Shown here in pieces: positions 2,503 through 20,897 of a stretch of DNA of 63,003 nt. The notes below the pieces were generated by a model, which was given only the letters and a program-made list of their open reading frames with translations, was not told the origin of the DNA and did not search any database. The position numbers were made by a program, and so were the translations under genes. Every line of letters begins with the position of its first letter. Positions within the stretch are counted from its first letter, which is position 1. The stretch spans positions 1 to 63,003 of the forward strand of contig JAZQVI010000040.1 of NCBI GenBank assembly GCA_045631745.1. Reading direction: 5' to 3'. Source of the DNA: Eubacteriales bacterium. GTDB lineage: Bacteria > Bacillota > Clostridia > Oscillospirales > CAG-272.

Positions 2503-5658
<3,156 letters not shown>

Positions 5659-5705: not shown

Positions 5706-5710
5706 TCAAA

Positions 5711-5792: not shown

Positions 5793-8700
5793 TTAGTCTT
5801 CCTTGCGCTTGCCAAGGCAAACTGCGCCAGCCATGATAGATGCGAACAGGATACCAGCTGCGCTGGTTACTACAGAGCCACAACCCTTCTTTGCAGGCTC
5901 TTCGCTTGCATCCGGAGCAGCGTTGTCAGCAGCGGGAGCGGTGGTATCTGCGGGCTGGGTGGTGTTGGTATCACCGGCGTCGTCGCCGCCCTCTTCCTCA
6001 TCTTCTTCGGGAAGCTTAGGCTCTTCCATTACAATGGTAATGTTCGCGGGATCGATTTCCTTCGGGAGAGGCAGGCTGTTATCAACAAGCTTAAAGGTCT
6101 CTTCCAGGCTGAAGGAAGCATCTCCTGCCTGGTTGGAGAAGGTCAGGCTGATAACAGGCTCTACGAACATATTGGGACCAGCATATATCGTCGTCGGATT
6201 CATCGTACACGTACGGTCCGTAGGAACGGGAGTTTCAGGATTATAGTCCTCACAAGGACTCGATCCGATTCCGAGTCCAACTCCATTCACCTTTGCCAGC
6301 GTCTGGTGCTCGTCATCAATCTCCTTAACAAAACCAACTGCATTGGTCAGAGTGAAGGTTCCGCCGGCATTGAGCCAACCAAGAACGATACCGTTGTGGT
6401 TAACGTTGCAGTCGATAGGAGCACTCATGTATCCGCGTGCGATAACGTTGGAAACGTTGATCTCGGTTCCGGTGCTGTTCGCACAGTTCTCTCCAACAAA
6501 TCCACCAATCTTGGTTGCAGTCTCGGCAACAGTAGCCTCGATGGAACCGTAGTATGCGGAATTGGTGATCGTCAGCTTTCCGGGACGAGGAGAACCATTA
6601 AACATATCACCAACCTGTCCTACGAAACCGCCAACCATAGCACCGTCAAAATTGTCTTTAGCAAACGGCTTGATCATCTTGATCGTTCCGTTGAATACGC
6701 ATCCGTCAATCACGGTGACAGCACCCTCACCGCCGGCACGCTCACGAATCTGAGCAAAGAAGCCGCCTGCAAATACGTTCTTCTGGCTTGCCGAACCGGC
6801 AGTGATCTCAGCGGTTACAACACTGTTTTTAACCGTGAGCGCCTTGTCCATCTGCCATCCGATCATACCGCCAACATATACCGGGCCGTTCACAGAACCA
6901 CGGATGACACAGTTGGAAATGGTCATCTCATCCGCGCGGGATGCACCTGCAATCGCACCGGTGTAAGCGCCGGTACCGGTTACTGCAATGTCGAGATCCA
7001 GATTCTCAAAGAGAACCGCTCCGGGGAAGGAAGCGTCGGTATTGATCTGTCCAAACAATCCACCGGTCTGAGTAGTACCGGAAACGGAGGATTCCACAAC
7101 AGTCAAATTCTTGACACCAACCGCAATGATACCTGCGGGTACCAAGTAAGATCCGAAAATGCCGCTATGAGTAATAGGATCGGTAGCAGAATCGGTAGCC
7201 TCAATCTTGACACCCTTCAGAGTATGGCCCTGACCGTCAATCATACCGAAGAACTTAGCATCCGTTTGACCCTGCATCGGCCAAGCCTGACCGGTTACGT
7301 CAATATCTGCTGCGAGCTTAACAGTAGTTCCTGCAAAATTGTTTCCTGCAGCGATTGCTGCCACAAATGCAAGCATCTCCTCTGCGGTGGAGATGGTCAT
7401 CTCTCCTCCGTAAATATCGAGAGGATCAATGCCCTTCGGAAGGGGCTTGAGTCCGCCAACCAGCTTGAAGGTCTCTGCCAGGCTGAAGGAAGCATTTCCA
7501 TCCTTGTTGGAGAAGGTCAGACTGGTGACAGGAGCGCTGAACATATTGTATGCATAAGCTGCCGTAACTGTAGAAGTCCTGTCAGATGTACTCCAACCTG
7601 TTGTTCCGGTTCCATTGGTTCCGGTGAGAACCTTATGATTGGAGTCGATCGCTTTTACCTGACCAACTGCATTGGTCAAGGTGAATGTTCCGCCTGCGTT
7701 CAGCCAACCAAGGATAAGACCGTTGTTATTTACGGTACAATCCTCGGGAGCGCTCATGTATCCGCCAACGATAACGTTGGAAACGGTGATTACAGAGTTC
7801 GAGTTCGCGTAGTTTTCACCAACAAATCCGCCAAACTTGGTTGCAGCCGTAGTATCAGCTGCAGTAACAGCAATGGCACCGTAGAATGCAGAGTTGGAAA
7901 TGGTAACCACACCGGGACGGGGCTGCCCGGAGTCATTCATAGCACCAACCAGTCCTACGAAACCGCCAACCTGAGCATTGTAGCTCTCGTACACCTCTAC
8001 ACCGTCCCTGGTGGCTTTTGCCTTGAACGAGGTGTTAATAGTTCCGCTGAATACGCATCCGTCCATCACGGTGTTGCTACCGTGACCGCCTACGCGCTCA
8101 CGAACCTGACCGAAGAAGCCACCAATCATTTGGCCCGATCCGGTTACTTCGGAAGACACTACACAATTCGTAACCGTGAGTGCCTTGTCCATCTGCTGTC
8201 CGATCATACCGCCGACAGCCGATGTACCTGTGACATAGCCACGAATCACACAGTTGGAGATGGTCATCTCATCTGCACGGGATACACCTGCAATTCCACC
8301 GGCGAAGAAAGCAGTGGTGACCGTTACGTTAATGTCAAGGTCGAGATCCTCAAACAGAACCGCTCCGGCAACGTCGCCGTTCTTGTTGTTGATCTGACCG
8401 AACAATCCGCCTGCGAGTTCAGAACCGAGTACAGACGAGCTTTGGATCGTCAGATTCTTAACGCCGACAACAGAGCCCTCAACAGGCACCAGGTATCCAC
8501 CGAAAATACCCTGGTAGGTTCCGCCGGCATTCAGTCTGATTCCCTTCAGGGTGTGGCCCTGACCGTCGATCATACCGGAGAAAACTCCCTGCTGTCCGGA
8601 CATCGGCCATGTCTGATGAGTCACATCAATATCTGCTGCGATCTTGATGGTCTTTCCGGAAAAATCATTTCCGTCAACAATGGCCTGAACAAACGAAAAC

Positions 8701-8849
8701 AGATCTTCCATTGTAGTAACAATGGGTTCAGCTGCATCCGCATCCCAAGTGTTGACTACTTCATCAGCACTTGCGGAAAGGGTGGTCATGGGAACGAAGG
8801 TGAGCATCAATCCCAAAACCAGAAGTGTAGCAATTAGTTTACGCTTCAT
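5793..8849 (-). CDS. large secreted surface protein with GLUG-like repeat motifs, internal tandem duplication, acidic/Pro-rich stalk and C-terminal TM anchor
   Basis: 1018 aa. Signal peptide MKRKLIATLLVLGLMLTFVPMTTLSASA. Recurrent GGLFGQ / GGIAGV / GGMIGQ / GGFFGQ / GGFVGE motifs. C-terminus ..EEPAKKGCGSVVTSAAGILFASIMAGAVCLGKRKED. GAGAGG RBS before the ATG at 8849. Confidence 0.85.
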   Translation of the reverse strand: MKRKLIATLLVLGLMLTFVPMTTLSASADEVVNTWDADAAEPIVTTMEDLFSFVQAIVDGNDFSGKTIKIAADIDVTHQTWPMSGQQGVFSGMIDGQGHTLKGIRLNAGGTYQGIFGGYLVPVEGSVVGVKNLTIQSSSVLGSELAGGLFGQINNKNGDVAGAVLFEDLDLDINVTVTTAFFAGGIAGVSRADEMTISNCVIRGYVTGTSAVGGMIGQQMDKALTVTNCVVSSEVTGSGQMIGGFFGQVRERVGGHGSNTVMDGCVFSGTINTSFKAKATRDGVEVYESYNAQVGGFVGLVGAMNDSGQPRPGVVTISNSAFYGAIAVTAADTTAATKFGGFVGENYANSNSVITVSNVIVGGYMSAPEDCTVNNNGLILGWLNAGGTFTLTNAVGQVKAIDSNHKVLTGTNGTGTTGWSTSDRTSTVTAAYAYNMFSAPVTSLTFSNKDGNASFSLAETFKLVGGLKPLPKGIDPLDIYGGEMTISTAEEMLAFVAAIAAGNNFAGTTVKLAADIDVTGQAWPMQGQTDAKFFGMIDGQGHTLKGVKIEATDSATDPITHSGIFGSYLVPAGIIAVGVKNLTVVESSVSGTTQTGGLFGQINTDASFPGAVLFENLDLDIAVTGTGAYTGAIAGASRADEMTISNCVIRGSVNGPVYVGGMIGWQMDKALTVKNSVVTAEITAGSASQKNVFAGGFFAQIRERAGGEGAVTVIDGCVFNGTIKMIKPFAKDNFDGAMVGGFVGQVGDMFNGSPRPGKLTITNSAYYGSIEATVAETATKIGGFVGENCANSTGTEINVSNVIARGYMSAPIDCNVNHNGIVLGWLNAGGTFTLTNAVGFVKEIDDEHQTLAKVNGVGLGIGSSPCEDYNPETPVPTDRTCTMNPTTIYAGPNMFVEPVISLTFSNQAGDASFSLEETFKLVDNSLPLPKEIDPANITIVMEEPKLPEEDEEEGGDDAGDTNTTQPADTTAPAADNAAPDASEEPAKKGCGSVVTSAAGILFASIMAGAVCLGKRKED
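6048..8723 (-). repeat. intragenic tandem duplication, two units of about 1.35 kb (about 450 aa) each
   Basis: Unit 1 (7422-8723) and unit 2 (6048-7400) align end to end, from (M/A)E(D/E)(L/M).(S/A)FV.AI..GN.F.G.T.K.AADIDVT to SLTFSN..G.ASFSL.ETFKLV....LPK.IDP. Confidence 0.85.
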
Positions 8850-8928
8850 AATTTTACCTCTCTTTTTGTTTTTTTGCATCCGATTGCACAATTTTGCCAC
8901 CAATTCGTGCATCGAATATGCTACACTT

Positions 8929-9060: not shown

Positions 9061-9092
9061 AAAAAAAGGACTCCCGCCAAGTGCGGGAGTCC
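9061..9092 (-). terminator. intrinsic terminator of lipoprotein cassette 1
   Basis: GGACTCCCGC-caagt-GCGGGAGTCC with a 7-nt T-run on the minus strand. The same stem recurs at 17450-17474. Confidence 0.85.
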
Positions 9093-9100
9093 CGAGATTG

Positions 9101-9835
9101 TTACATGGGTGTGGTAGCGTGCAGGCAGAAATCGTCAATGTAGAAGACGGTTTCCTTTGTAGTAGAATGTTGGCTAAAGGAGAAGGTCAAGCGCTCTACC
9201 GTGTCGTTTTTCAGCAAATCCTTGATGTTTTTCAGCGTTTCGTTGTCACTGCCCTTTGCCTTGGAAGTGGCAAAGTCGATCGTCACCAGCGTCCATTCCT
9301 TTGCGGGAATTTCCTCAGTGTAGTAGATTGCAGGAGCCGAGTCATTGGTGTACTTGATCGAAAGCGTGATCTCACGCGCCTTAGCCTGTGCGTTGTAAAC
9401 CCAGAAGGAAATCTTCTTCACCTTGCTGAAATCGCTGTAATTTTTGCGGTGTTCGATATCCATGAAGTGTCTGACGTTCGTTTCGCTATAACTGTTGCTC
9501 TCGACCTTTCTGCTAATCTTCAAGCTCTGCTTGCCGGAATGAACGATCTTCTTCTCTACCGTCGCAGCCGTACCCACCTGGCCGGCAGTCACGGGATTGA
9601 AATCCGCGGGTCTTTCAAAGTCATTGATGATGATCTGATACAAGCCGTCGCTTCCCTTCTCGGGGGTCGGAACCTTCCAATTTGTGATGGTTCCTGTAAC
9701 AAGCTCAAACTCTTCGGTGCCTTGATCTTCATTCAAATCTGTATCATCATTGGGAGTTTGGGCATCGTCGCATCCTACGAAGAGCGGAAGGCAGCACGAG
9801 AATGCCAACAAGAGCGTAAGTAATCTTTTTTTCAT
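9101..9835 (-). CDS. small lipoprotein with CBM-like (galactose-binding-like) domain, cassette 1
   Basis: 244 aa. Lipobox LPLFVGC. C-terminal pattern ..ISFWVYNAQ..EWTLVTIDF..FYIDDFCLH is typical of beta-sandwich carbohydrate-binding modules. Paralog at 17490-18191. Confidence 0.8.
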   Translation of the reverse strand: MKKRLLTLLLAFSCCLPLFVGCDDAQTPNDDTDLNEDQGTEEFELVTGTITNWKVPTPEKGSDGLYQIIINDFERPADFNPVTAGQVGTAATVEKKIVHSGKQSLKISRKVESNSYSETNVRHFMDIEHRKNYSDFSKVKKISFWVYNAQAKAREITLSIKYTNDSAPAIYYTEEIPAKEWTLVTIDFATSKAKGSDNETLKNIKDLLKNDTVERLTFSFSQHSTTKETVFYIDDFCLHATTPM

Positions 9836-9841
9836 GGCAGC

Positions 9842-12487
9842 TTATCCTTTCTCTACGTACAAATTTGTGATTGCAAGACTCAAACCACTGGTCTCAATGG
9901 TCAGCTTGACGCTATCGGGAGCCGCAGTCTTCTTTGGAATGGTATCGCCGCAAACAAGCGCGTAACCATTGATCTCAACGTGATTCATACCGGGCTTGAG
10001 CGTAATAGTCAATGCCTCATTCTGCTCATCAAGATGAATTCCCTCGTAAACCTTTTTATAATTACCCGAGCTCTTCTTGACCTTGACAGTGAATTCCACG
10101 GTCTTATCGGAATCGTTGTAAATGTCGAGCCAGAAAGACTGAGAAATGCTGTTGATCGAAAGTTTCTTCAGATCGAAGGTCAGATCCTGAGTTCCGTTCT
10201 TCAGAGTGACGCGGTAAGCATCCTTGCCGCAATCCGAATCGTTTGCAACGAACTTCGTGGTATTGCCACCTACGGAGAGATAGTCGCCGATCTTATCTGC
10301 CGTGATTTCCTGATAGGACGCGCCAAGCCAAAATTCGCCCGAAACGGTCTTGGTTCCGTTGGTGGCGGAAATGGTGGCGATGCTACCCTTGGTCAGGTCA
10401 ATTTTGGCAACAATCTTGCCCTCGGTACGAGTGAGTGCCGTACCGTTCAGCGAAACGGTTACACCCTCGGGAGCCTCCATGGTCAGCGTGATAATCGAGC
10501 TTCCCTTTTCGAAGTCAGAAACGCGAACGCCCATGCTCAAGAGATCAAGCGCTGCAGAAAGAGAGGAACGAAGGGTATCGAAGTTGTTTTCGAGATCCTC
10601 ACCGATCTGAACCAGTGTTCCGGAATAGTATCCGGTTGCGATGAACTCTACCAAAGAGATGAACTCCTCGTCGGTGTAGGTCACGTTGTTGTTCTTTGCA
10701 TACTCTTTATAGATCTCCTCCATCACGTAGAAGGCCTCATAGTCCTCCATACTGTCGCGGAGAGCCTCAAGACGAATGCTCACAAGAGGTCCCGCGATGC
10801 CGTAGTTTGCACCGGGATAGAAGATAAATCCGTCACCGTTACTTGCAGGATAGCGGTTTGCCGTCTGATAGCAATCCTGGAGCTCGCTCATGACACCGTC
10901 CCAACCGTTGTCCATATTGTAATAGAGGTTGGTATACCACATCTGATGTCCTGCAATGTTGTACTGCTGGAGAATCCAGCCCATTGCACGTGTGGTCAGG
11001 AGCGAGTCATCAATGTGGAGCGTGGGATTGGGAGAAGGCGGGTACACACCGGTGTACATCCAAACCTCAGCCGTGTCGGTTCCGTAGAACTCGTTGTAAC
11101 GGTCATTCTCCGCCTCAAGCAGCTCACGTCTCTCTTCCGTTTGGAAGTGCCAAAGCTGAATCCACTGCGTGTAGGGATACTCAAAGTTCATAAAATCCGA
11201 GTTGTTGGTGGAGTTTGTCTGAGCCATCGTAACAGCGTGCTGAATGACTCTCATATCCTCGAGAACTTCGCGGATAAAGTCTTCTTCAACCGCAGCGCCA
11301 AGCCACTTGTCTCCGCCGGAGGCCAATCTGCCTGTTTCCAGGTAGTCCATGTACTCATCGTAGAGAGCCTGCTGGATTTTCTTGAGCTCACTGGTCACGA
11401 ATTCCACTTCCTTGGGCTTTTCGCGGTAGTCTGCCTCGTCAAGGTTGGTGAGCCACATGCCCAGCTTCTCCATGAGGTTGATTCCCTCTTTGGCGGAGCG
11501 CTTCAGGATCATGAGCAGTGTGCTTTTGTACAGATCAAAATCAACCAAGGATCCGTTAGCGGCAGCAGTTTGGTCAGGCAGCTTGCCATCCTTCTTTTTG
11601 TAGGGAATATTGATCCAGGTCACACGCTCATCCTGCGTGTACTTTACAAGCGAGTCAATCCAGGTTTCAAGCTCGCTGACAGAGGGATTAAATCTGTGGC
11701 CGAGACCGGTGGGGAGAGACTGGGGCTGCAAACGATAGTTCAAAAGCGCCTCAGTGTAGAGTTCCTCCATTTCAAGTGTCCAAGCAAGCTCTCCTCTTGC
11801 AAGCGCATCGTCATAAACCGCAAAGCAGCTCTTCTGATGCGTTGCACTGGGGAGAACGTAATCCCAAACAGTAACCTCTACAGGGAACTCTCTGGTCTCG
11901 CCGTTGATAGTCAAAGCAAACTTACCAGTGTAAACACCTGCCGCCTGATCTGCGGAAATGTTTACATTGAACCAGATTCCCTGATTGAGTCCCTTGCGAA
12001 CCTGTGTCTCACCATATTCAATAGCAACATCAAGAGGCAGAAGCGCATCGGGATATGCTCCGGCCTTACAACCGGAAAGGATGTCCTTGATTTCAGAAAC
12101 AATGATGTATTTCTCATTGTACACGGTGAAGCAGTCCTTGGAGAGGGTGTTCGCACCGCTCTTCAGATCGCGCAGCTCCACATCATAGCTCAAGATATCC
12201 GTCGTTGCATTCAAAATCACCTGTGCGTTTTCGTACTCGTTGCGGAAGCCCTTGAAGCTAAGCTTCTGTGTTCCGGACGAATACTCCTGCTTCTGCAGCA
12301 CCTTCACAGTTGAAGGCGCAGTGCACATTGTCGCACTGACGAATTCAACAGGAGCCTCGATTTTGTCTCCTCCGCCGACATTGCCGGAGCCGTCGGTTGT
12401 CTCATCATTACAACCCGCCAAACAGCCAAACAACATCACAGCAAAGAGCATCAAACAAAGCAGTCTTGTCGTAAGTTTTGTTTTCAT
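9842..12487 (-). CDS. large lipoprotein, DUF4091/GH123-like putative glycoside hydrolase, cassette 1
   Basis: 881 aa. Signal peptide and lipobox (LFGCLAGC). YPDALLPLD.., VTVWDYVLP, NLDEADY (Asp-Glu pair) and WMYT.. motifs fit my memory of DUF4091 proteins. AGGAGG RBS. Confidence 0.8.
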   Translation of the reverse strand: MKTKLTTRLLCLMLFAVMLFGCLAGCNDETTDGSGNVGGGDKIEAPVEFVSATMCTAPSTVKVLQKQEYSSGTQKLSFKGFRNEYENAQVILNATTDILSYDVELRDLKSGANTLSKDCFTVYNEKYIIVSEIKDILSGCKAGAYPDALLPLDVAIEYGETQVRKGLNQGIWFNVNISADQAAGVYTGKFALTINGETREFPVEVTVWDYVLPSATHQKSCFAVYDDALARGELAWTLEMEELYTEALLNYRLQPQSLPTGLGHRFNPSVSELETWIDSLVKYTQDERVTWINIPYKKKDGKLPDQTAAANGSLVDFDLYKSTLLMILKRSAKEGINLMEKLGMWLTNLDEADYREKPKEVEFVTSELKKIQQALYDEYMDYLETGRLASGGDKWLGAAVEEDFIREVLEDMRVIQHAVTMAQTNSTNNSDFMNFEYPYTQWIQLWHFQTEERRELLEAENDRYNEFYGTDTAEVWMYTGVYPPSPNPTLHIDDSLLTTRAMGWILQQYNIAGHQMWYTNLYYNMDNGWDGVMSELQDCYQTANRYPASNGDGFIFYPGANYGIAGPLVSIRLEALRDSMEDYEAFYVMEEIYKEYAKNNNVTYTDEEFISLVEFIATGYYSGTLVQIGEDLENNFDTLRSSLSAALDLLSMGVRVSDFEKGSSIITLTMEAPEGVTVSLNGTALTRTEGKIVAKIDLTKGSIATISATNGTKTVSGEFWLGASYQEITADKIGDYLSVGGNTTKFVANDSDCGKDAYRVTLKNGTQDLTFDLKKLSINSISQSFWLDIYNDSDKTVEFTVKVKKSSGNYKKVYEGIHLDEQNEALTITLKPGMNHVEINGYALVCGDTIPKKTAAPDSVKLTIETSGLSLAITNLYVEKG

Positions 12488-12519
12488 TTTTTCCTCCTAA
12501 GACAATTTATTTGCATTTA

Positions 12520-12548
12520 ATTATAACATGAATGGAACAAAAAGTCAA
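12520..12548 (-). promoter_or_regulatory. sigma-A type promoter of cassette 1
   Basis: Minus strand TTGACT (12543-12548), 17-nt spacer, TATAAT (12520-12525). Confidence 0.6.
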
Positions 12549-12721
12549 TTCCATCTTTCTTGGCTTGTCTTTTTTTGGTGTTGTACACAAAAAAGCAGTG
12601 CAAGACTTGTGCAACATCACACCGAGAATTAACACGCCGTTCATATGAATACGGAAAATATTTTTTTCTTGATTTTTCTGGCGATTTATGCTACAATATG
12701 TTAGAAGTGCGAGGTGATGGA

Positions 12722-13423
12722 ATGCGAACATTTACAGACTGGAATTGCGACCTTCTCCCCATGATGGGAGGGCTGGTGACAACACCTTGTGAAGCGGCAA
12801 AGACACTCTTGCTTCTTAAAGAAAAATTCGGACTGTCACGCTTTTGCATGACGCCCGAATTTGACTGTGAAAAGGATTCCGTTGCATCGTTTATCGCCAA
12901 GAGAGAGCGAGCCTGCTCCGATCTTGCCTCTCATCTGCCGTCCAATATCAAGCTTCTGCAGGGAGCCTCTGTTTTACTTTTGCCCGGGCTTTCGGAGGAG
13001 CGCGGACTCAAGGCGCTTTGCCTTCCGACGACAGACGAGCTTCCCATCAAGCTTCCCTTCTTTTCCATGTCGAACCGGTCGTCGGTTGAGTTAAACCGGT
13101 TGCTTTATCATTCCTCTCGACGCATTTGTCTTTTATCCTTTGATTCTTACTTAAATTGCTATTCAAAGGATGACATCGAGCGTTGGAGCAAGCTGGAGAA
13201 CGTTTCCTTCCAGTTCAATTACCGTTCCTTGGCATCTCCCGAGGTGCGACTTCTTCTAAAGCATTTAATCGATCGAAATGCCACCATTCGCTTCGGAACA
13301 GAGTTGAATTCCTTCGGAAAAGCCTGCTATTATGAGTTTGATCACTACATTGACGTGGCGAAATCCTACTTTTCCGAGTACGAAAGAGACCGACTGTTTT
13401 TCTCGAAGAAACACGTAAAATAG
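12722..13423 (+). CDS. hypothetical protein, possibly a degenerate CpsB/YwqE-like PHP-fold protein lacking the metal ligands
   Basis: 233 aa from MRTFTDWNCDLLP with a GAGGTGA RBS. The block order resembles the PHP tyrosine phosphatase CpsB, but the His/Asp positions are substituted. Confidence 0.6.
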   Translation: MRTFTDWNCDLLPMMGGLVTTPCEAAKTLLLLKEKFGLSRFCMTPEFDCEKDSVASFIAKRERACSDLASHLPSNIKLLQGASVLLLPGLSEERGLKALCLPTTDELPIKLPFFSMSNRSSVELNRLLYHSSRRICLLSFDSYLNCYSKDDIERWSKLENVSFQFNYRSLASPEVRLLLKHLIDRNATIRFGTELNSFGKACYYEFDHYIDVAKSYFSEYERDRLFFSKKHVK

Positions 13424-13437
13424 CGTTTTTTACAAGG

Positions 13438-13710
13438 TTATTCCTCCGAGGTGTGCTTTTCGCAATATTTGAGCTTTGTCGCTTGACCCCCGCGGATATG
13501 TCTCTCCTCTTTGTTTTTCATCAATACCTTTTGTACCTCTTCAAACAATCCCTTGTTGACAAACCGAAGCGTCTGCGTGACGTCCTTATGTACCGTGCTC
13601 TTGCTGACACCAAACACCGCCGCCGCCGATCTGACCGTCGCTTGGTGGCTGATCAAATATTCCGCAAGAACCACGCATCTGGCTCTGCCGCCCCAATCGG
13701 ATACCATCAT
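13438..13710 (-). CDS. spoIIID: sporulation transcriptional regulator SpoIIID
   Basis: 90 aa. ..ATVRSAAAVFGVSKSTVHKDVTQ.. and ..HIRGGQATKLKY match SpoIIID hallmark segments. Confidence 0.92.
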   Translation of the reverse strand: MMVSDWGGRARCVVLAEYLISHQATVRSAAAVFGVSKSTVHKDVTQTLRFVNKGLFEEVQKVLMKNKEERHIRGGQATKLKYCEKHTSEE

Positions 13711-13751
13711 AATTTGTTTCCCCTTTCTCGAAACGAAAATAATCCGATATC

Positions 13752-13780
13752 ATTCTATGTAACGCGTGAAAAAAATAGAA
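13752..13780 (-). promoter_or_regulatory. candidate sigma-E type promoter of spoIIID
   Basis: Minus strand TTCTATT, 14-nt spacer, CATAGAAT, compared with the remembered SigE consensus (TCATATT-14-CATACAAT). It lies 42 nt upstream of the ATG. Confidence 0.4.
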
Positions 13781-13804
13781 TCCACCAAAGGAATTTTGTA
13801 TTTT

Positions 13805-14578
13805 ATGAAGAAAGAAGACTTTGCATTTTTACAATCCAATCTACTGGAAGGCATGACCTCTATTTCGGCGCTGCTGAACACACCGCCCGAGATCAATGAC
13901 CGAAAGATCCTCAAGATTCAGATCGATCAATCCAAACGGCGTTCAAAGGCTGCAGAAATCGGTTTTTTGGTTGCAAAATCAAAGGAATTGGGATTCCCTC
14001 TTGAGTTTGTTGCAAGCGAAGAAATCGATCAGATTGCCGTCGGCTCCTCGCATGGAGGAATTGTGGCATTTTGCAGTGACAGAAGCTATCCGGTTTTGCG
14101 CGCGGAAATGATCAATCCAAAGGGCTTTTATGTTTATCTGGAAGGAATCGAGGATCCGTACAATTTTGGAAATGCGATCCGATCGCTGTATGCTGCCGGG
14201 GTGAGCGGAATTGTCATTCCTCCTCGAAACTGGATGAGTGCCTCGGCCGTCGTTGCCAAGTCTTCTGCAGGCGCCTCCGAGCGACTTCCGATTTATGTTT
14301 CGGACGCAGAGTCTGTTGCACCGATCTTTCATCAGGCAAACTACCGCGTCCTGTGTGCGGGGATCAGAGATTCGGTTTCTGTCTTCGAGGCCGAGATCGC
14401 TTATCCGATTCTTTTGGTAATCGGAGGCGAAAAACGCGGTATTTCCCGCACAATTTTAGAGCAAGCCGATCAGATTTTGCGCATTGATTACGGCAGAGAA
14501 TTTCGCGGTTCTCTTTCGGCATCCTCCTCTGCTGCGGTCTTAGCCTTTGAAATCATGAGAAAAAACTTAAACAAATAA
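13805..14578 (+). CDS. TrmH/SpoU-family RNA 2'-O-methyltransferase (RlmB-like)
   Basis: LEGIEDPYNFGNAIRSLYAAGVSGIVIP and LLVIGGEKRGISRTILEQAD motifs. The ATG at 13805 is preferred over the GTG at 13766, which lies inside the putative spoIIID promoter. Confidence 0.82.
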   Translation: MKKEDFAFLQSNLLEGMTSISALLNTPPEINDRKILKIQIDQSKRRSKAAEIGFLVAKSKELGFPLEFVASEEIDQIAVGSSHGGIVAFCSDRSYPVLRAEMINPKGFYVYLEGIEDPYNFGNAIRSLYAAGVSGIVIPPRNWMSASAVVAKSSAGASERLPIYVSDAESVAPIFHQANYRVLCAGIRDSVSVFEAEIAYPILLVIGGEKRGISRTILEQADQILRIDYGREFRGSLSASSSAAVLAFEIMRKNLNK

Positions 14579-14621
14579 AAAAGAAAAACCGACGATTGCC
14601 ACAGCAATCGTCGGTTTTTTC

Positions 14622-15362
14622 TTATTGATTCGGTTGTCTGGCTTCCTCATCCTTCAAATGAATTTGGGAAATGATCAGAAACATAAGCAAATATCCGATC
14701 AGTCCGCTTGCCAGGTCTCCAAGGTAATACAGAATCATTCCAAGCAGATCGGCAGTTCCTCGCGGAGCTCCGTTGTCAATGTCAAAAATAATTCTTGATC
14801 CCAAACGGCTTACCATCAAAATCAAAGAAACAGACAGGGCGCATTTGAGCACCAAATTTGAAATGCCGAACATTCCCGAAAAATTGAAATTGATATTCTT
14901 TTCCGTTCTCTTTCGCTGAAAAAGCAAATAGCAAAGCAGAAAGGCGAGCCCCAAGAGCATAAGATCACCGAAAAAGTCAACCATCACATAGTAAAAGTGG
15001 TAGTTCATCGAACTCCAATCGGAATTGATCAAATTCACAAGCAAAAGGCTCAGAAAATACTTCAAAAAAGAGCAACCGATGTACACAAGAGTCAAGATAC
15101 CGGTCGCCCGGGCAGAATAACGCGCAAAAAGATACACCAAAAAGGAAAAAGCAACCCAGTAGTAAAGGTAATGCGCCGCATCCTGAACAAAGTCCCACAG
15201 AACAGGAAAAATCGTTTCGGAAATCAAAATATTTGAGGACGACAGCACGTAGATCGGTGTACAAACAAATACGAAAAAGCAAGAGATCACAAGCAGCAAT
15301 AAACTGCCGTATCGCTCGACTTTTTTCTTTCTTTCCATATCAAAGGTTGTAATTTGTATCAT
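14622..15362 (-). CDS. polytopic integral membrane protein, function unknown
   Basis: 246 aa with about 6 hydrophobic helices. No motif recognised. Confidence 0.7.
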   Translation of the reverse strand: MIQITTFDMERKKKVERYGSLLLLVISCFFVFVCTPIYVLSSSNILISETIFPVLWDFVQDAAHYLYYWVAFSFLVYLFARYSARATGILTLVYIGCSFLKYFLSLLLVNLINSDWSSMNYHFYYVMVDFFGDLMLLGLAFLLCYLLFQRKRTEKNINFNFSGMFGISNLVLKCALSVSLILMVSRLGSRIIFDIDNGAPRGTADLLGMILYYLGDLASGLIGYLLMFLIISQIHLKDEEARQPNQ

Positions 15363-15473
15363 AAATTCCCTCTCTGCTTTTCTTTTTTAATCGATTTTTA
15401 TCGTTATTTGTAAATCATTTTCTTACAGCGTCATATCCTTTTATAGAAAATGTGACACTGAAAGGATTGAAAT

Positions 15474-16403
15474 ATGCCGATACCAATGAATAAGCACTTC
15501 AAAATTGACGTTCCCATGGATTCTGCAGAGCTTCATCGGCAGATCGAAACACTTGCCGAAAAGCACCCCTCACTCAACGTCATGGAGGTTGGAAAGAGCA
15601 TCCTTGGAAAAAGCATCCCTCTTATCTCCATTGGATGCGGAAAACGAAAGGTTCTGTATGTTGGCGCGCATCACGGAATGGAGTGGATCACATCAGCGGT
15701 CTTGCTCCGATTTGTTTCCGAATTCTGCGAGTTGCTTGATCGGAATGAAAAAGCATATAAGTGCTCCCTCCGTCTACTCTCGGATCAGTACACCATTTAC
15801 GTCCTTCCCATGCTCAACCCCGACGGCGTCGATTATCAGATCCACGGGGTGAATACAAAAAATCCGCTGTATGACCGCGCACTGTCCATGAATCATGGCA
15901 GCAGCGATTTCTCACATTGGCAGGCAAACGCCAGAGGCGTAGACCTAAACCACAACTACAACGCAGGCTTCCAATCCTATAAGCGCATCGAAGCAGAGGA
16001 ACAGATTCCATGCGGTGCACCGACAAGATATAGCGGACAGGAGCCCGAGTCAGAACCGGAGGTGCGCGCGCTTTGCAATTTCATTCGCTTTCAAAAGGAT
16101 CTGCGCTTGGTACTCACGCTTCACACACAGGGTGAAGAGATCTTTTGTCGGTTAAATGAAGCAGTGATCACGCGCAATTTCCTTGCACTTTCCAAGATAT
16201 CTGCCTTGACAGGCTACAAAATATCAGAAGCAGAGGGACCTGCTGCGTACGGCGGCTTGACCGATTGGTGTATTCAAACGGAGGGAATTCCTGCACTGAC
16301 ATTGGAGTGCGGAAAGGGCGTCAATCCCCTGCCGATCTCCGATCTTCACGCAATTTATCGTCGACTTCGCGAGACCTTGTTCGTCGCGCCGACCTTGTTT
16401 TAA
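15474..16403 (+). CDS. M14-family zinc carboxypeptidase (gamma-D-glutamyl-diamino-acid peptidase-like)
   Basis: 309 aa. HHGMEW (HxxE zinc motif), NPDGVDY, GVDLNHNY. Confidence 0.85.
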   Translation: MPIPMNKHFKIDVPMDSAELHRQIETLAEKHPSLNVMEVGKSILGKSIPLISIGCGKRKVLYVGAHHGMEWITSAVLLRFVSEFCELLDRNEKAYKCSLRLLSDQYTIYVLPMLNPDGVDYQIHGVNTKNPLYDRALSMNHGSSDFSHWQANARGVDLNHNYNAGFQSYKRIEAEEQIPCGAPTRYSGQEPESEPEVRALCNFIRFQKDLRLVLTLHTQGEEIFCRLNEAVITRNFLALSKISALTGYKISEAEGPAAYGGLTDWCIQTEGIPALTLECGKGVNPLPISDLHAIYRRLRETLFVAPTLF

Positions 16404-17347
16404 TCAACTCTGTTGCGGCGTGTTCCCTTTTGGAAGGCGTCAATATTCTGCGAAATCTCATTCATCAACCGAACTCGTGTTTCATAACCTCCCCACGCCA
16501 TATGAGGTGTCAGGCACACGTTTGGCAGATGACTGATGCGATGATAGGCGTGATCGGCAGGATACGGCTCTTTGGAGTAAACATCGATTCCGATGCCGCC
16601 AAGTCTTCCTTCTTCGATCGCGTTTACCAGTGCAGTCTCGTCTGTCACCGCGCCACGCGCCACGTTGATCAAGATCGCAGAGGGCTTCATCATCCGAATG
16701 TGAGCATCATCAATTAAATTTCTGGTAGAATCATTGAGGGGCGTATGGATTGAAATGATATCCGCCTCCTTGCAGATTCGATCAAGGGATACACACTCCC
16801 ACTCTTCAACGGGAGTCCGTTTATTGACCAAAACACGGCATCCCAATGCCTTAGCAACAGCGCCTACCTGGCGACCAATGTTCCCAAACCCTACAATTCC
16901 CCATGTTTTACCGCAAATTTCGTGATATACGGGGGTCAGACAGTTTGCAATTCCGTTTTTTGTGTAGGAGCCGCTTCTCGTCATCTCGCAATATTCCGGT
17001 AGGTGTGTCATGAGAGATAACGCCATAGCGATTGTCACCTGTGCAACACTTTGCGTAGAGTATCCGACCACGTTGGAGACCGCGATCCCATGCTCACGGC
17101 AATAGCCTACGTCAACATTGTCAAAGCCTGTTGCAGCAAGGCAAATCAGCTTGAGCGACTTGGCCATCGCCAACTCAGGCGCCCCCAGCTTGACCTTGTT
17201 GAGGATCGCAACGTCTGCGTTCTTCAGATGCTCGGGAATTTCCATGGGAGCGGTTGACTGATAAAGAGTCAAATTCCCGTATTTTTCAAATAGGCTCAAA
17301 TCAAGATCACTTCCCAGCGTAGCAGCATCCAAAACAACGATGTTCAT
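16400..17347 (-). CDS. D-isomer-specific 2-hydroxyacid dehydrogenase (glycerate/hydroxypyruvate reductase-like)
   Basis: 315 aa. GIVGFGNIGRQVG Rossmann motif, ..INVARG..VDE.AL, HMAWG. Confidence 0.9.
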   Translation of the reverse strand: MNIVVLDAATLGSDLDLSLFEKYGNLTLYQSTAPMEIPEHLKNADVAILNKVKLGAPELAMAKSLKLICLAATGFDNVDVGYCREHGIAVSNVVGYSTQSVAQVTIAMALSLMTHLPEYCEMTRSGSYTKNGIANCLTPVYHEICGKTWGIVGFGNIGRQVGAVAKALGCRVLVNKRTPVEEWECVSLDRICKEADIISIHTPLNDSTRNLIDDAHIRMMKPSAILINVARGAVTDETALVNAIEEGRLGGIGIDVYSKEPYPADHAYHRISHLPNVCLTPHMAWGGYETRVRLMNEISQNIDAFQKGTRRNRVD

Positions 17348-17443
17348 GCGGAACTCCTTTTTACGAATTTAAGATATTATAACATATAACACCGATTCTT
17401 GCAAGACGTTTTGATGAAAAACGGGTAAGAAATCATTAAAATT

Positions 17444-17474
17444 CAAAAAAGGACTCCCGCACATAGCGGGAGTC
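17444..17474 (-). terminator. intrinsic terminator of lipoprotein cassette 2
   Basis: GGACTCCCGC-acata-GCGGGAGTCC with a T-run on the minus strand. The stem is identical to the one at 9068-9092. Confidence 0.85.
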
Positions 17475-17489
17475 CTTGAGGTTAAAGAA

Positions 17490-18191
17490 TTACATCGGAT
17501 TCGTCGAATGCAGACAGATATCGTCGATATAGAAGATTATATCCTTCGCAGTGGAAGCACGGGTGAAGGTAAAGGACATACGCTCTACCGTCTTACCTGC
17601 TGGGATTTCATTATAGTCTGCAAGATTGATCACAACCTCGGTCCACTCTTTGGAGGGAATCTCTGTGTCTACGCTGATATGCGTCTTAGAATCACCTGTT
17701 AATGTGATCGCAAAGGTCAACTCCTTAGCCGTTTTCTGTGCATTGTATACCCAGAAGGAGATTTTCTTTACAGTCTTGAAGTTGGAGTAGTCCTTGCGGT
17801 GCTCCAAATTCAAGGGCTGTCTGAGGTTTGCATAGTCATAACGGCCGTCTTCGTTCAAAAAACGAACCTTAAAGCTTTGATTGCCGGAATGAACGATCTT
17901 CTTCTCGACCTCGCCCGCGGTGTTCTTTTGTCCTGCAATCAAAGGACCGATATCTGCGGGTCTCTCAAAGTCGTTGATAATAATTTTGTACAAGCCGTCC
18001 TCACCCTTTTCAGGCGTCGGCACCTTCCAATTTGTGATGGTTCCTGTAACAAGCTCAAACTCTTCGGTGCCTTGATCTTCATTCAAATCTGTATCATCTG
18101 TATCATTGGGAGTTTCAGCATCGTCGCATCCTACGAAGAGCGGAAGGCAGCATACAAATGCCAACAAGAGAGCAAATAATCTTTTTTTCAT
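17490..18191 (-). CDS. small lipoprotein with CBM-like domain, cassette 2 (paralog of 9101-9835)
   Basis: 233 aa. Same lipobox LPLFVGC. The N-terminal ~80 aa are nearly identical to the paralog. Ends ..IFYIDDICLH. Confidence 0.8.
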   Translation of the reverse strand: MKKRLFALLLAFVCCLPLFVGCDDAETPNDTDDTDLNEDQGTEEFELVTGTITNWKVPTPEKGEDGLYKIIINDFERPADIGPLIAGQKNTAGEVEKKIVHSGNQSFKVRFLNEDGRYDYANLRQPLNLEHRKDYSNFKTVKKISFWVYNAQKTAKELTFAITLTGDSKTHISVDTEIPSKEWTEVVINLADYNEIPAGKTVERMSFTFTRASTAKDIIFYIDDICLHSTNPM

Positions 18192-18197
18192 GGCAGC

Positions 18198-20834
18198 TTA
18201 TCCTTTCTCTACGTACATATTGGTGATGGCAAGGTTCAAACCACTGCCGTTATCAATGGTCAACTTGAGGCTGTCGGGAGATATCGGCTCCTTTGTGGGA
18301 GATCTCTCTCCGCTAAGCAACGCATATCCGCTGATCTCGACGTGATTCATGCCTGGCTTGAGCGTAATCGTCATCTGATAGTCCAAATGGTACGCCTCAT
18401 ATACCTTCCTATAATTGCCTGTGCCCTTCTTGACACGGACGGTGAATTCCACTGTCTGATCGGAATCGTTGTAAATGTCAAGCCACAGAGACTGAGAAAT
18501 ATTGTCGATATCAAGATCCTTCAGATCGAAGATCAAATCCTGAGTTCCGCCCTTCAGATCTACACGGTAAGCATCCTTGCCGCAATCAGAATCGTTTGCA
18601 ACGAACTGCGTGGGGTTGCCTCCTACGGAAAGATAGTCGCCGATCTTATCTGCCGTGATCTCCTGATAAGATGTACCAAGCCAGAAATTACCCGACGCGG
18701 TCTTGGAACCGTTGGTAGCAGAAATGGTCGCAACGTTGGTCTTAGACAAATCTACAGACGCAACAAGCTTTCCGTCCTGTGCCGTAACAGCCTGACCATT
18801 CACGGAAATCGACACGCCTACAGGAGCATCCATGGTCAGCTTAATCACAGCGCTGTTCTTTTCGAAGTCGGTTACGCGAACGCCCATCGAAAGAAGATCA
18901 AGCGCTGCCACCATTGCCTCGCGCAGGCTACCGAAGTTATCGGTCAGAGGATCCCCAATCTGAACAAGCGTACCGGTATAGTATCCCGTTGAGAGGAGAT
19001 CAACGATGGAAGCAAACTCTTCATAAGAGTATTCGATTCCGTTCTTTTCTGCAATCTCCTTATACATCTGCTCCATTACATAGAAGATCTCATAGTCCTC
19101 CATACTATCGCGGAGAACCTCGAGACGAACGCTTGCAACCGGGCCCTTGATCCCGTATGGTGTACCGGGATAGAAAATGAATCCGTCGCCGTTCGTAGGC
19201 TCATAACGGTTTGCCGTCTGATAGCAATCCTGAAGCGATCCGGACATAACATTGTCCCAACCGTTTTCCATGTAGTAGTAGAGGGTGGTGTACCAATACT
19301 CGTGTCCTGTGATGTTATACTGCTTCATCATCCAGCCCATTGAACGAAGGGTCAGAAGATCATCGTCAATATGCAGGGTCGGATTGGGAGAAACAGGGAA
19401 GGTCGCGGTGTACATCCAAACCTCTCCCGTATCAGTACCATAGAATTCGTTGTAGCGGTCAATCTCTGCCTGAATCGCATCACGCCATTCTTCGACGTGG
19501 AACTGCCACAGATAGATACACTGGGTAGCCGGATACTCGTAGATCAAATTGGAATTGGTCGCAACGTTGGTATGCGCAGAGGTTGTCCAGTGTTGAATCG
19601 TTCTCAGATCCTCAAGAACCTCACGAATGAAGTTCTCTTCAACTGCAGCGCCAAGCCATTTATCTCCGCCCGAAGCCAGTCTTCCTTCCTCCAGGTATCC
19701 AATGTACTCGTTGTAGAGTCCTTGCTGAATCTCCTTGAGTGTCTTGGTCAGATATGCCGATTCCTTCGTTCTCTTGTGGTAATCTGCCTCGTCAACAAGA
19801 GTGAGATACATACCCATCTTTTTCAGGAGATTGATTCCCTCAGTCGCCGAACGCTTGAGCAGCAATTCGAGTGTGTACTTGTACAGACTAAAATCAATCA
19901 AGGTTCCCTTCTGACCGGCTGTTCCGTCGGGAAGGGTCCATTCCTTTTTGTCTATTTTGTAAGGAATGTTAATCCAGGTAACACGCTCGTCCTTCGTGTA
20001 CTTGACAACCGAATCCACCCAGTCGTTCAAATCGTTAATAGAGGGATTGAAAGCGTGTCCGAGACCGGTGGGAAGAGACTGGGGCTGCAGACGGTACTCC
20101 AGCAGCATCTGGGTGTAAATCTCCTCCATTTCACGCGTCCATGAAACCTCTGCCTTGCCCAATGCATCGTCATAAACGGCAAAGCAGCTCTTCTGATGGG
20201 TAGCGGAAGGAACAACGTAATCCCAAACCGTTACCTCAACAGGAAATTTCTTGGTCTCGCCGTTGATGGTCAGAGCAAAGCTGCCGGTGTAAACACCTGC
20301 CGCCTGATCCTCGGGAACAAACACGGTAAACCACAGTCCCTGATTGAGTCCCTTGCGGAACTGGTTCTCGCCGTATTCGATAGCGGAATCCAAAGGCAGG
20401 AGCGCATCGGGATAAGAGCCTACTCCATAGCCGCTGAGAAACTCAAGCTGTTTTGTTACGGTGATGTACTTTTCGTTGTACACGGAGAAGCAATCCTTGG
20501 AGAGAGTGTTTTCCCCGCTCTTCAGATCACTCAACTCCACGTCATAGCTCAAAACATCGGTTTTCGCGGTCATGATCACCTGAGCGTTTTCGTACTCATT
20601 GCGAAAGCTCTTGAAGCTGAGCGTCTGCGTGCCCGAGTTATAATCCTGCTTTTGCAACACCTTGGTAGTAGAAGGTGCAGTGCACATCGTGGCACAGACG
20701 AACTCCACAAGCGCTTCTTCTGTGTTATCGTTTTCGGGGTCATTGGGATCGTCTTTGCATCCCGCAAGACAGCTGAACAGCATCACAGCAAAGAGCATCA
20801 AACAAAGCAATCTTGTCGTGAGTTTTGTTTTCAT
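18198..20834 (-). CDS. large lipoprotein, DUF4091/GH123-like putative glycoside hydrolase, cassette 2 (paralog of 9842-12487)
   Basis: 878 aa from MKTKLTTRLLCLMLFAVMLF (AGGAG RBS). Colinear with cassette 1 throughout and keeps VTVWDYVVP and LVDEADY. Confidence 0.8.
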   Translation of the reverse strand: MKTKLTTRLLCLMLFAVMLFSCLAGCKDDPNDPENDNTEEALVEFVCATMCTAPSTTKVLQKQDYNSGTQTLSFKSFRNEYENAQVIMTAKTDVLSYDVELSDLKSGENTLSKDCFSVYNEKYITVTKQLEFLSGYGVGSYPDALLPLDSAIEYGENQFRKGLNQGLWFTVFVPEDQAAGVYTGSFALTINGETKKFPVEVTVWDYVVPSATHQKSCFAVYDDALGKAEVSWTREMEEIYTQMLLEYRLQPQSLPTGLGHAFNPSINDLNDWVDSVVKYTKDERVTWINIPYKIDKKEWTLPDGTAGQKGTLIDFSLYKYTLELLLKRSATEGINLLKKMGMYLTLVDEADYHKRTKESAYLTKTLKEIQQGLYNEYIGYLEEGRLASGGDKWLGAAVEENFIREVLEDLRTIQHWTTSAHTNVATNSNLIYEYPATQCIYLWQFHVEEWRDAIQAEIDRYNEFYGTDTGEVWMYTATFPVSPNPTLHIDDDLLTLRSMGWMMKQYNITGHEYWYTTLYYYMENGWDNVMSGSLQDCYQTANRYEPTNGDGFIFYPGTPYGIKGPVASVRLEVLRDSMEDYEIFYVMEQMYKEIAEKNGIEYSYEEFASIVDLLSTGYYTGTLVQIGDPLTDNFGSLREAMVAALDLLSMGVRVTDFEKNSAVIKLTMDAPVGVSISVNGQAVTAQDGKLVASVDLSKTNVATISATNGSKTASGNFWLGTSYQEITADKIGDYLSVGGNPTQFVANDSDCGKDAYRVDLKGGTQDLIFDLKDLDIDNISQSLWLDIYNDSDQTVEFTVRVKKGTGNYRKVYEAYHLDYQMTITLKPGMNHVEISGYALLSGERSPTKEPISPDSLKLTIDNGSGLNLAITNMYVEKG

Positions 20835-20868
20835 TTTTTTCTCCTTAAATGAAAAATATTTGCAATAT

Positions 20869-20897
20869 ATTATAACATACACGCTCAAATATGTCAA
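20869..20897 (-). promoter_or_regulatory. sigma-A type promoter of cassette 2
   Basis: Minus strand TTGACA (20892-20897), 17-nt spacer, TATAAT (20869-20874). Confidence 0.6.

Follow-up and report, generated by a model that had tools for sequence, protein, structure and literature searches.

We analysed a 63,003-nt stretch of genomic DNA from a Eubacteriales bacterium (contig JAZQVI010000040.1; hereafter the window), which carries two copies of a two-gene cassette, both on the minus strand. Each cassette consists of a promoter, a gene for a large predicted lipoprotein resembling glycoside hydrolase (GH) family 123, a short gap, a gene for a small predicted lipoprotein resembling a carbohydrate-binding module (CBM), and an intrinsic terminator (Table 1). 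This layout had been proposed in an earlier reading of the letters (the sequence-only reading), and our open reading frame (ORF) calls and site scans confirmed it: the TTGAC(T/A)-17-TATAAT promoters, the 6-nt gap, the shared terminator stem and all of the listed peptide motifs, namely YPDALLPLD, VTVWDYV(L/V)P, (N/L)(L/V)DEADY, the LPLFVGC lipobox and FYIDD(F/I)CLH, were found again. Both cassette promoters are within the top three promoter-like sites of the interval 8800-21200, and the two terminators are the best terminator-like sites in that same interval. The stem that they have in common, GGACTCCCGC-N5-GCGGGAGTCC followed by a T-run, occurs twice in the window, where 0 occurrences are expected by chance.

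The stop of the large gene and the start of the small gene are separated by 6 nt in both copies, and the junction, GAGAAAGGATAAGCTGCCATG, is identical in the two. Since a Shine-Dalgarno-like AAAGGA of the small gene sits within the end of the large gene, translational coupling of the two genes is plausible. For the large gene of copy 2, a mechanical ORF listing had taken a TTG at 20897 as the start; we rejected this because the TTG belongs to the -35 hexamer, and the start is instead the ATG at 20834, which is preceded by AAGGAG. The signal peptide of the large protein has the form MKTKLTTRLLCLMLFAVMLF(G/S)CLAGC and that of the small protein the form MKKRL..LLLAF.CCLPLFVGC. Inspection of the sequences showed a positive n-region, a hydrophobic h-region and a lipobox Cys in both partners across the whole family. 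Because these signal peptides end in a lipobox Cys, both proteins are predicted to be membrane-tethered lipoproteins.

Table 1. Positions of the cassette features, of the homogenised tracts and of other genes in the 63-kb window
Feature	Position	Strand	Remarks
Copy 1 promoter	12520..12548	-	TTGACT-17-TATAAT, extended -10 TG; 11/12 consensus matches
Copy 1 large gene	9842..12487	-	881-aa predicted lipoprotein; ORF, Pfam, model
Copy 1 codons of the predicted catalytic pair	11435..11440	-	Asp350-Glu351 (TNLDEADY)
Copy 1 small gene	9101..9835	-	244-aa predicted lipoprotein; FVGC lipobox, acidic linker, CBM-like jelly roll
Copy 1 intrinsic terminator	9061..9093	-	GGGACTCCCGC-ACTTG-GCGGGAGTCC, then T7
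Copy 2 promoter	20869..20897	-	TTGACA-17-TATAAT, extended -10 TG; 12/12 consensus matches
Copy 2 large gene	18198..20834	-	878-aa predicted lipoprotein
Copy 2 codons of the predicted catalytic pair	19788..19793	-	Asp348-Glu349 (TLVDEADY)
Copy 2 small gene	17490..18191	-	233-aa predicted lipoprotein; above the Pfam Lyase_N threshold
Copy 2 intrinsic terminator	17445..17477	-	AAGGACTCCCGC-TATGT-GCGGGAGTCCTT, then T-run
Gene-conversion tract 1	9671..9844	-	Large/small junction and about the first 55 small-gene codons
Gene-conversion tract 2	11276..11365	-	Internal to the large gene (roughly aa 375-405, in the barrel's helical insertion)
Conserved 233-aa protein	12560-13423	+	ORF listed as 287 aa; probable start Met at about 12722
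SpoIIID-like gene	13438-13710	-	90 aa
SpoU methyltransferase gene	13766-14578	+	
Membrane-protein gene	14622-15362	-	
Beta-helix surface protein	5793..8912	-	1039 aa; C-terminal membrane anchor; own consensus promoter 8957-8929; outside the operon
LacZ-type GH2 beta-galactosidase	2503..5652	-	No signal peptide (cytoplasmic); recurrent neighbour
Regions noted as ordinary chromosome	24363-25780, 25866-28169, 42463-46162		

The two large proteins matched two Pfam families above their gathering cutoffs: PF22680 (the GH123 N-terminal domain) with 49.7 and 43.7 bits against a cutoff of 27, and PF13320 (GH123_cat, formerly DUF4091) with 43.7 and 37.9 bits against a cutoff of 23.1, the latter over profile positions 209 or 215 to 323 of 324. 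Among solved structures, the best match was NgaCa (8K2F), a Group 1 oligosaccharide-releasing beta-N-acetylgalactosaminidase from Cohnella abietis (PMC11087588), with E=1e-20 for the single sequence and E=8e-45 for the family profile; the HMMER alignments to NgaCa, NgaDssm and NgaAt span residues ~438-572. An AlphaFold model built on 24 family members reached a predicted local distance difference test score (pLDDT) of 83 and a predicted template-modelling score of 0.85. When this model was searched against the PDB with Foldseek, the top 22 matches were all GH123-type enzymes, with target-normalised template-modelling (TM) scores of 0.60-0.75, and the best of them was again NgaCa (8K2F/8K2G; 0.74-0.75). 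In the model of copy 1, the signal peptide with its LAGC lipobox and a disordered tether are followed by an N-terminal beta-sandwich (~50-215), a (beta/alpha)8 barrel (~216-520) with a long helical insertion at about 358-413, the DUF4091 region (~467-600), a helical linker, an Ig-like sandwich (~655-735) and a C-terminal CBM-like jelly roll (~740-881). Thus, the assignment of the large protein as DUF4091/GH123-like, made in the sequence-only reading, was borne out by both the Pfam scores and the fold search. NCBIfam has no model for the large protein, and public records label it 'DUF4091 domain-containing protein'. It has been reported that CAZy now holds the classical GH123 enzymes and the related Groups 1-4 together as subfamilies of GH123, of which the large-protein family would be a distant one (PMC11087588). 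Given that the enzyme family thus falls formally within CAZy GH123, the catalytic half of the cassette is a new member of a known family, and on its profile matches and model we file the large protein under GH123, in an uncharacterised long-form branch that lies nearest Group 1.

Nine residues are strictly conserved over Groups 1-4 and GH123, which in NgaLy are D95, W115, D327, E328, Y392, G427, W431, Y466 and R478 (PMC11087588). The copy 1 large protein has counterparts of all nine, with order and spacing kept (D147, W172, D350, E351, Y478, G513, W517, Y557 and R572, respectively), down to the G-to-W spacing of 4 that it has in common with NgaLy. Eight of the nine are invariant in the 24 family members, and W172 is W in 19 of them and Y in the other 5. 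The Asp-Glu pair, D350/E351, is invariant not only in 24/24 family members, but also in 20/20 members of a broader multi-phylum set that includes homologs from Planctomycetota and Omnitrophota. In an alignment derived from a profile of the barrel core alone, it falls on the 'ADEP' of NgaDssm and the 'WDEP' of NgaAt, and in the AlphaFold model it comes after the fourth barrel strand. The pair that the sequence-only reading had singled out in (N/L)(L/V)DEADY therefore corresponds to the consecutive Asp-Glu of solved enzymes. In characterised members, the Asp stabilises the 2-acetamido group that the substrate carries, and the Glu serves as acid/base in a mechanism that is retaining and substrate-assisted; all characterised members of the superfamily act on beta-linked N-acetylgalactosamine (beta-GalNAc) or, more generally, N-acetylhexosamine (beta-HexNAc) (PMC11087588). 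Judged by its residues and its predicted fold, the large protein is most likely a surface retaining beta-N-acetylhexosaminidase, probably a beta-N-acetylgalactosaminidase of the oligosaccharide-releasing kind.

The small protein was modelled with a pLDDT of 78, with values >80 over most of residues 60-244. Its best Foldseek matches were CBM11 structures (1V0A, 6R31 and 6R3M; E=5e-8 to 8e-8, target TM 0.59-0.63), followed by CBM22, CBM4, CBM16, CBM61 and the CBM-like domain of GH50 agarases. The proposal that it is CBM-like is borne out by these fold matches, with Pfam CBM scores lying just under threshold. Lyase_N, the CBM-like N-terminal domain of chondroitin lyases, is matched above its cutoff of 26 by copy 2 (32.5) and fails to be matched by copy 1 (22.9). 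NCBIfam gave no match, and public records carry the small protein as 'hypothetical protein' or unnamed. The C-terminal part of the large-protein model likewise matched the CBM-like domain of GH50 agarases, and the small protein and the large-protein C-terminal domain could be aligned by hhalign (E=1e-4). In addition, a hidden Markov model (HMM) of the small protein matches the C-terminal domain of divergent large proteins with independent E-values of 2e-9 to 2e-5, which is evidence of paralogy and not of fusion. From these alignments, the small protein and the C-terminal domain of the enzyme itself appear to be distant paralogs, and the models suggest that the small protein is most likely a detached, separately anchored glycan-binding or positioning subunit.

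We also examined whether the pairing is kept in other genomes. For this, 56 loci were gathered from metagenome and genome collections and scanned with HMMs of the large and small families, which gave 47 long-form large genes, 45 of them with enough downstream sequence to be judged. A small homolog lies directly downstream on the same strand in 38 of the 45. One further large gene is unambiguously fused to its partner (P0013, 1091 aa, in locus L006), and in the sister genome (L007) the two genes are separate while their context is the same; a possible fusion was seen at L028, and in 5 of the 45 no separate partner was detected. Other apparent fusions among the HMM matches were rejected, since their coordinates are those of the large protein's own C-terminal domain. 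The synteny is kept down to about 26-30% identity of the large protein, and most of the distant relatives have as partner a lipoprotein of 385-425 aa in which two CBM-like domains stand in tandem. By contrast with this branch, an HMM scan of the loci of remote DUF4091 proteins from Planctomycetota, Victivallales and Armatimonadota found no partner, so that the pairing is a feature of the long-form branch. The pair is accordingly syntenic in nearly all of the related genomes sampled and fused in one; the description of it as an 'obligate pair' holds in that the pairing is conserved, but 'obligate' is slightly too strong a word, given the large genes without a detectable separate partner.

In the genome collection scanned, the long-form branch occurs mainly in uncultured gut Clostridia, such as Christensenellales, 'Ca. 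Scatosoma' and Pumilibacteraceae. An exhaustive search returned >150 clusters (50% identity) with end-to-end matches (E<1e-146) and 1584 representatives at E<=1e-30. A word-indexed protein search had suggested a tiny family of 28 clusters, which we rejected because the exhaustive search showed this number to be a limit of sensitivity. A long-form GH123-like module is also embedded in two giant proteins of 2780-2935 aa (L041, 1-8808, and L042, 622-8964), which lack a separate small partner. The literature that we searched held no description of a GH123-like enzyme paired with a CBM-like lipoprotein, in agreement with the suggestion that the module was undescribed.

Next, we compared the two cassettes with each other. 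The large paralogs are colinear and 70% identical over their full length (E=0), the small paralogs are 61% identical (E=9e-112), and the whole cassettes are 71% identical at the nucleotide level. The sequence-only reading had estimated 65-75%, which fits the large proteins and is slightly too high for the small ones. It is in the C-terminal halves, which include a 13-residue indel, that the small paralogs are least alike, a pattern that would fit diverged ligand preference. Six genes lie between the cassettes, which are therefore not in tandem: they encode the 233-aa protein, SpoIIID, a SpoU methyltransferase, a membrane protein, an M14 peptidase and a 2-hydroxyacid dehydrogenase. Neither Pfam nor NCBIfam has a match for the 233-aa protein, which is conserved upstream of copy 1 in L001 and L002, and NCBIfam has no model for two unknown neighbour genes. 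Between the convergent SpoU and membrane-protein genes there is a perfect hairpin of 16-17 bp (14583-14620), flanked on either side by T-runs and resembling a bidirectional terminator.

The two-copy arrangement, with the same five genes in between, occurs on independently assembled contigs of related species (L002, L003 and L010), which shows that the duplication is not an assembly artefact. In L001, one cassette was found in the region, at the copy-1 position; the copy-2 site is an intergenic region of ~160 bp, and the order of the intervening genes is the same. Both paralog clades have 100% bootstrap support over the window, L002 and L010. The synonymous divergence (dS) between the paralogs is about 1.0, and the ratio of nonsynonymous to synonymous divergence (dN/dS) between orthologs is about 0.11 for the large gene and 0.16-0.17 for the small gene. 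Together, these values indicate that the duplication is old and that all four genes are under purifying selection. Because L001 was placed in the tree with a bootstrap value of 49%, its single copy may reflect either a loss or the ancestral state.

Two tracts depart from this pattern of divergence (Table 1). In both, the paralogs within a genome are 80-99% identical, as compared with 49-80% for the orthologs of the window and L002, and the same two tracts have been homogenised independently in the window genome and in L002. The terminators tell a similar story. None of the related loci has the exact motif with its 5-nt loop. In L002, where the terminator sites lie at about 4990-5020 and 13370-13400, the copy 2 terminator has the same stem as the window with a 3-nt loop, and the copy 1 terminator has a different stem, GGGCCTCCGC...GCGGGGGCCC. 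Since the stem of the window is thus found in L002 behind copy 2 only, the copy-1 terminator of the window has probably been overwritten by gene conversion. Independent duplications have occurred elsewhere: L025 has two large/small pairs in tandem (5236-12115), and L031 and L039 have two large genes each, so that duplication of the enzyme/partner module is recurrent. We also considered a mobile-element origin of the cassettes and rejected it, given that the base composition is uniform and that no transposase, integrase or recombinase lies nearby. The cassettes are old paralogs that have both been kept functional, and their glycan preferences have probably diverged.

The genomic context of the pair was analyzed over 36 non-redundant loci. 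The common order in relatives is an AraC regulator (15/36 loci), two permeases of the ATP-binding cassette (ABC) type (23/36), a ~550-aa solute-binding lipoprotein (25/36), the large gene, the small gene and, directly after the pair, a 'third gene' (20/36). A secreted purple-acid-phosphatase-like protein often comes next, with a phosphoesterase present in 8/36 loci, and GH2 (8/36), GH3 or GH29 genes are often near. The 'third gene' family, of 675-1533 aa, was seen at L004 (11760-16361), L008 (11879-13906), L009 (11705-15328) and 12 further loci, and is not in the window; it has no Pfam or PDB match. The phosphoesterase that adjoins the pair in distant loci is calcineurin-like (L013, 11964-13997; L021, 12515-14530; L008, 13919-15997; L034, 7531-9018; L028, 2280-3806), and in several of them it combines a purple-acid-phosphatase-type N-terminal domain with Listeria-Bacteroides (Flg_new) repeats. 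The association with a phosphoesterase could point to a glycan substrate that contains phosphodiesters.

The window belongs to a sub-lineage, together with L001, L002, L010, L006, L007 and L011, in which no transporter adjoins the pair. Six of the seven loci, the exception being L001, have the beta-helix surface protein or a homolog of it beside the pair, and a homolog accompanies the pair in L003 as well. In the window, this protein contains two internal repeats of ~480 aa and an acidic stalk rich in Pro, Ala, Asp and Thr; its Pfam matches (DUF4957 and pectate-lyase-like) are weak, and no match was found in the PDB or NCBIfam. The LacZ-type GH2 beta-galactosidase is kept in the window, L002 and L010. 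It had been named as a neighbour in support of a surface unit, and it is indeed a recurrent associate of the pair, but it is cytoplasmic and not a surface protein. Elsewhere in the window, an orphan ABC ATPase of the MsmX/MalK type (46937-48052) could energise sugar importers encoded at other sites, and the remainder is the ordinary chromosome of a spore-forming anaerobe, with dipicolinate synthase A/B, ComEC, genes for proline and for a tricarboxylic acid cycle branch, and an electron-bifurcating-type [FeFe] hydrogenase.

Based on these results, we propose that the two cassettes are two-gene operons for a surface GH123-type beta-N-acetylhexosaminidase and a separately anchored CBM-like binding subunit, which as a whole we regard as fairly probable. 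Each cassette would be a strongly promoted, self-terminating operon of a spore-forming gut Clostridium, and its two lipid-anchored products would be placed on the outer face of the cytoplasmic membrane. The large protein would cleave beta-linked N-acetylhexosamine, probably beta-GalNAc, inside a glycan or near a glycan end, with Asp350 orienting the 2-acetamido group that the substrate carries and Glu351 serving as acid/base in a retaining, substrate-assisted reaction. The small protein, made from the same mRNA, would be a free-standing copy of the C-terminal CBM-like domain of the enzyme, with a lipid anchor and an acidic tether of its own. The products would pass to the adjacent ABC sugar importer in most relatives, although no importer is adjacent in this genome, and the nearby cytoplasmic GH2 beta-galactosidase could finish imported fragments of the Gal-HexNAc type. 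Candidate substrates are host beta-GalNAc glycans and bacterial envelope glycans or exopolysaccharides, with an acidic plant polymer less likely. The bacterial candidate is favoured by the phosphoesterase association and by the earlier suggestion that repeating-unit exopolysaccharides are substrates of oligosaccharide-releasing enzymes (PMC11087588). We also considered glycosaminoglycans in view of the Lyase_N match, but do not favour them because neither a sulfatase nor a lyase is present in any locus.

Several observations weigh against this proposal. The identity of the large protein to NgaCa in the structural alignment is only 18%, and by sequence its barrel core aligns weakly with the solved enzymes (E=0.004). 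In Group 1, the nearest characterised group, the second enzyme tested, NgaMg, was inactive on all substrates tried, and the natural substrate of NgaCa is unknown (PMC11087588). On the side of the small protein, the Pfam CBM scores are below the gathering cutoffs (CBM_11, 25.5 against 27; CBM_4_9, 23.1 and 24.5 against 25.9; CBM_3, 20.5 against 22.4), and the complex I assembly factor NDUFAF1 is among the fold matches as well, so that a CBM-like fold is no proof of sugar binding. As for the context, neither of the cassettes in the window has an adjacent transporter or regulator, the flanks being housekeeping genes, and in L006 and L007 the pair has as neighbours two GH28 genes, genes for a GDSL and an AXE1 esterase, and a GH2-like gene, a pectin-like context that would supply no 2-acetamido sugar.

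It may be that the enzyme has been read correctly and that the small protein does not bind glycans, serving instead a structural, docking or regulatory purpose, for instance by positioning, stabilising or masking the enzyme at the membrane. The jelly roll is also used in protein-protein roles, as NDUFAF1 and a flagellar sheath protein among the fold matches illustrate, and the sub-threshold CBM scores are in keeping with such a role. Conservation in the close family is highest over a stretch (GTITNWKVPTPEKG.DGLY..NDFERPAD) at the beginning of the domain, partly outside the confidently modelled core, where it could form an interface, and one of the gene-conversion tracts covers exactly the junction and the N-terminus of the small protein. 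Nevertheless, the top fold matches are bona fide type-B CBMs that were solved with ligands (CBM11, CBM22, CBM61 and CBM16), the homologous domain of the enzyme is a C-terminal appendage, which is the usual place of a CBM, and the partner of most relatives has two tandem domains, as multivalent CBMs do. We therefore see a purely non-binding partner as possible but doubtful.

The pair could also act on bacterial envelope glycopolymers, such as teichoic acids, capsules and exopolysaccharides, or on the cell's own wall, and not on dietary or host glycans. Both proteins are predicted to be tethered at the membrane under the wall, at least 8 distant loci carry behind the pair a secreted phosphoesterase resembling purple acid phosphatases, as would suit phosphodiester-linked HexNAc polymers, the suggestion of exopolysaccharide substrates (PMC11087588) points the same way, and the cassettes of the window flank an M14 peptidase and SpoIIID. 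However, the usual context of the pair is AraC-regulated ABC sugar import with GH2, GH3 and GH29 enzymes, which indicates nutrient harvesting and not remodelling of the cell's own wall. The phosphoesterase is absent from the window and its sub-lineage, and the genes between the cassettes are unrelated housekeeping genes whose order is the same in L001, where one cassette was found in the region. An exclusive role in the envelope thus seems unlikely to us.

Still less likely is that the long-form subfamily has moved off HexNAc to another sugar, for example in a pectin-like or acidic plant polymer, with the Asp-Glu pair in another role. The GH28 and esterase genes around the pair in L006 and L007, which belong to the closest lineage, would fit such a shift, as would an L-rhamnose isomerase gene in the window and the Group 1 enzyme that was inactive on all HexNAc substrates tested. 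Against it, all nine superfamily residues are kept, including the Asp that handles the acetamido group and Y478 and W517, which correspond to Y392 and W431 of NgaLy, two residues reported to surround the substrate, and the activities on record for the superfamily (PMC11087588) are all on beta-GalNAc or beta-HexNAc. Because this conserved catalytic machinery needs a 2-acetamido sugar, a pectin substrate has a low probability. Finally, the idea that the pairing or the duplication is incidental, through chance adjacency, an assembly artefact or a recent mobile cassette, might draw on the self-contained form of the cassettes from promoter to terminator and on the short copy-2 site of L001, but it is effectively refuted by the synteny in 38 of 45 cases plus one fusion, the two copies on independent assemblies, the paralog dS of about 1.0, the purifying selection on all four genes, and the uniform composition with no transposase or integrase near.

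If our preferred reading of a surface hexosaminidase with an anchored binding subunit is taken further, the two lipoproteins might associate physically as the two subunits of one surface enzyme, which would be the monoderm equivalent of a Bacteroidota utilisome core. This enzyme would have a new endo-acting GH123 specificity for a beta-HexNAc polymer not yet linked to GH123, such as phosphodiester-containing envelope glycans or Sda/LacdiNAc-bearing mucin, and the two cassettes would represent two specificities. We put this forward as a tentative extension that may well prove wrong.

GH123-type enzymes are dedicated beta-GalNAc glycosidases, and the natural substrates of their cleft-type (Group 1-like) branch are an acknowledged open question (PMC11087588). 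The present analysis reveals a large long-form branch of GH123, usually accompanied by a conserved partner lipoprotein for which we found no name, Pfam family or literature. This provides a defined enzyme/partner pair, conserved loci whose ABC importer, GH2, phosphoesterase and 'third gene' can guide the search for substrates, and paralogs with which specificity can be mapped. The cassettes thus offer a clearly delimited system in which to look for the natural substrates that are still missing for cleft-type GH123 enzymes of gut Clostridia. If it is true that the partner is a detached binding subunit, then the concept of the surface glycan-binding lipoprotein would extend from Bacteroidota to monoderm gut bacteria. 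As far as the literature searched shows, the novel part is the split arrangement, with a CBM-like lipoprotein paralogous to the C-terminal domain of the enzyme; the finding points to no new principle.

Among characterised enzymes, NgaCa is thus the nearest to the large protein. The two have in common the N-terminal beta-sandwich, the (beta/alpha)8 barrel, the DUF4091 region, an Asp-Glu pair that follows the fourth strand of the barrel and the complete set of nine residues conserved in the superfamily. With ~880 aa against 516 aa, the large protein is about 360 residues longer: its barrel is bigger and contains the long helical insertion, and it also has a helical linker, an Ig-like domain and a C-terminal domain resembling a CBM. 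It is, moreover, a predicted lipoprotein with a dedicated partner gene. The classical GH123 exo-beta-N-acetylgalactosaminidases (CpNga123, 5FQE; BvGH123, 5L7R; NgaP) and the members of Groups 2-4 that we compared (NgaAt, 8K2H; NgaDssm, 8K2J; NgaP2, 8K2L; NgaLy, 8K2N) have the same fold and DE motif and are farther from the large protein than NgaCa is (profile E=7e-27 to 4e-3). They have pocket-shaped or extra-loop active sites for terminal GalNAc (PMC11087588), and none of them has been described with a separate binding-module partner. The best structural matches of the small protein are type-B jelly-roll CBMs (CtCBM11, 1V0A/6R31; CBM22, 1DYO/4XUP; CBM4, 3K4Z; the GH50 agarase domain, 4BQ2). 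It has an NDFE-type first strand and an FYIDD last strand and matches Pfam CBM_11 and CBM_4_9 weakly; it differs from these modules in falling under the sequence threshold and in being encoded as a separate lipoprotein and not as a domain of an enzyme.

At the level of whole loci, most relatives match the Gram-positive polysaccharide utilisation loci (Sheridan et al. 2016, PMC5320581), with the pair directly behind the AraC regulator, the ABC permeases and the solute-binding protein, whereas the pair forms an operon by itself in the window and its sub-lineage, with neither a transporter nor a regulator adjoining it. In the literature searched, we found no description of a dedicated binding-module lipoprotein, other than a solute-binding protein, as a component of such loci. 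A similar logic is found in the utilisomes of Bacteroidota, in which surface glycan-binding proteins of the SusE/F type accompany surface GH lipoproteins (PMC7618045): there, too, a separately lipid-anchored, non-catalytic binder is encoded beside a lipid-anchored glycosidase, and the resemblance includes the placement in a glycan-import locus. No SusC/D-like genes are present in the window or in any related locus. Bacteroidota utilisomes are built on an outer membrane and a SusC/D transporter, in contrast to the predicted cytoplasmic-membrane anchor of the Clostridium cassette and the ABC importer of its relatives. The cassette would work like a Sus-like utilisome but is not a member of that class.

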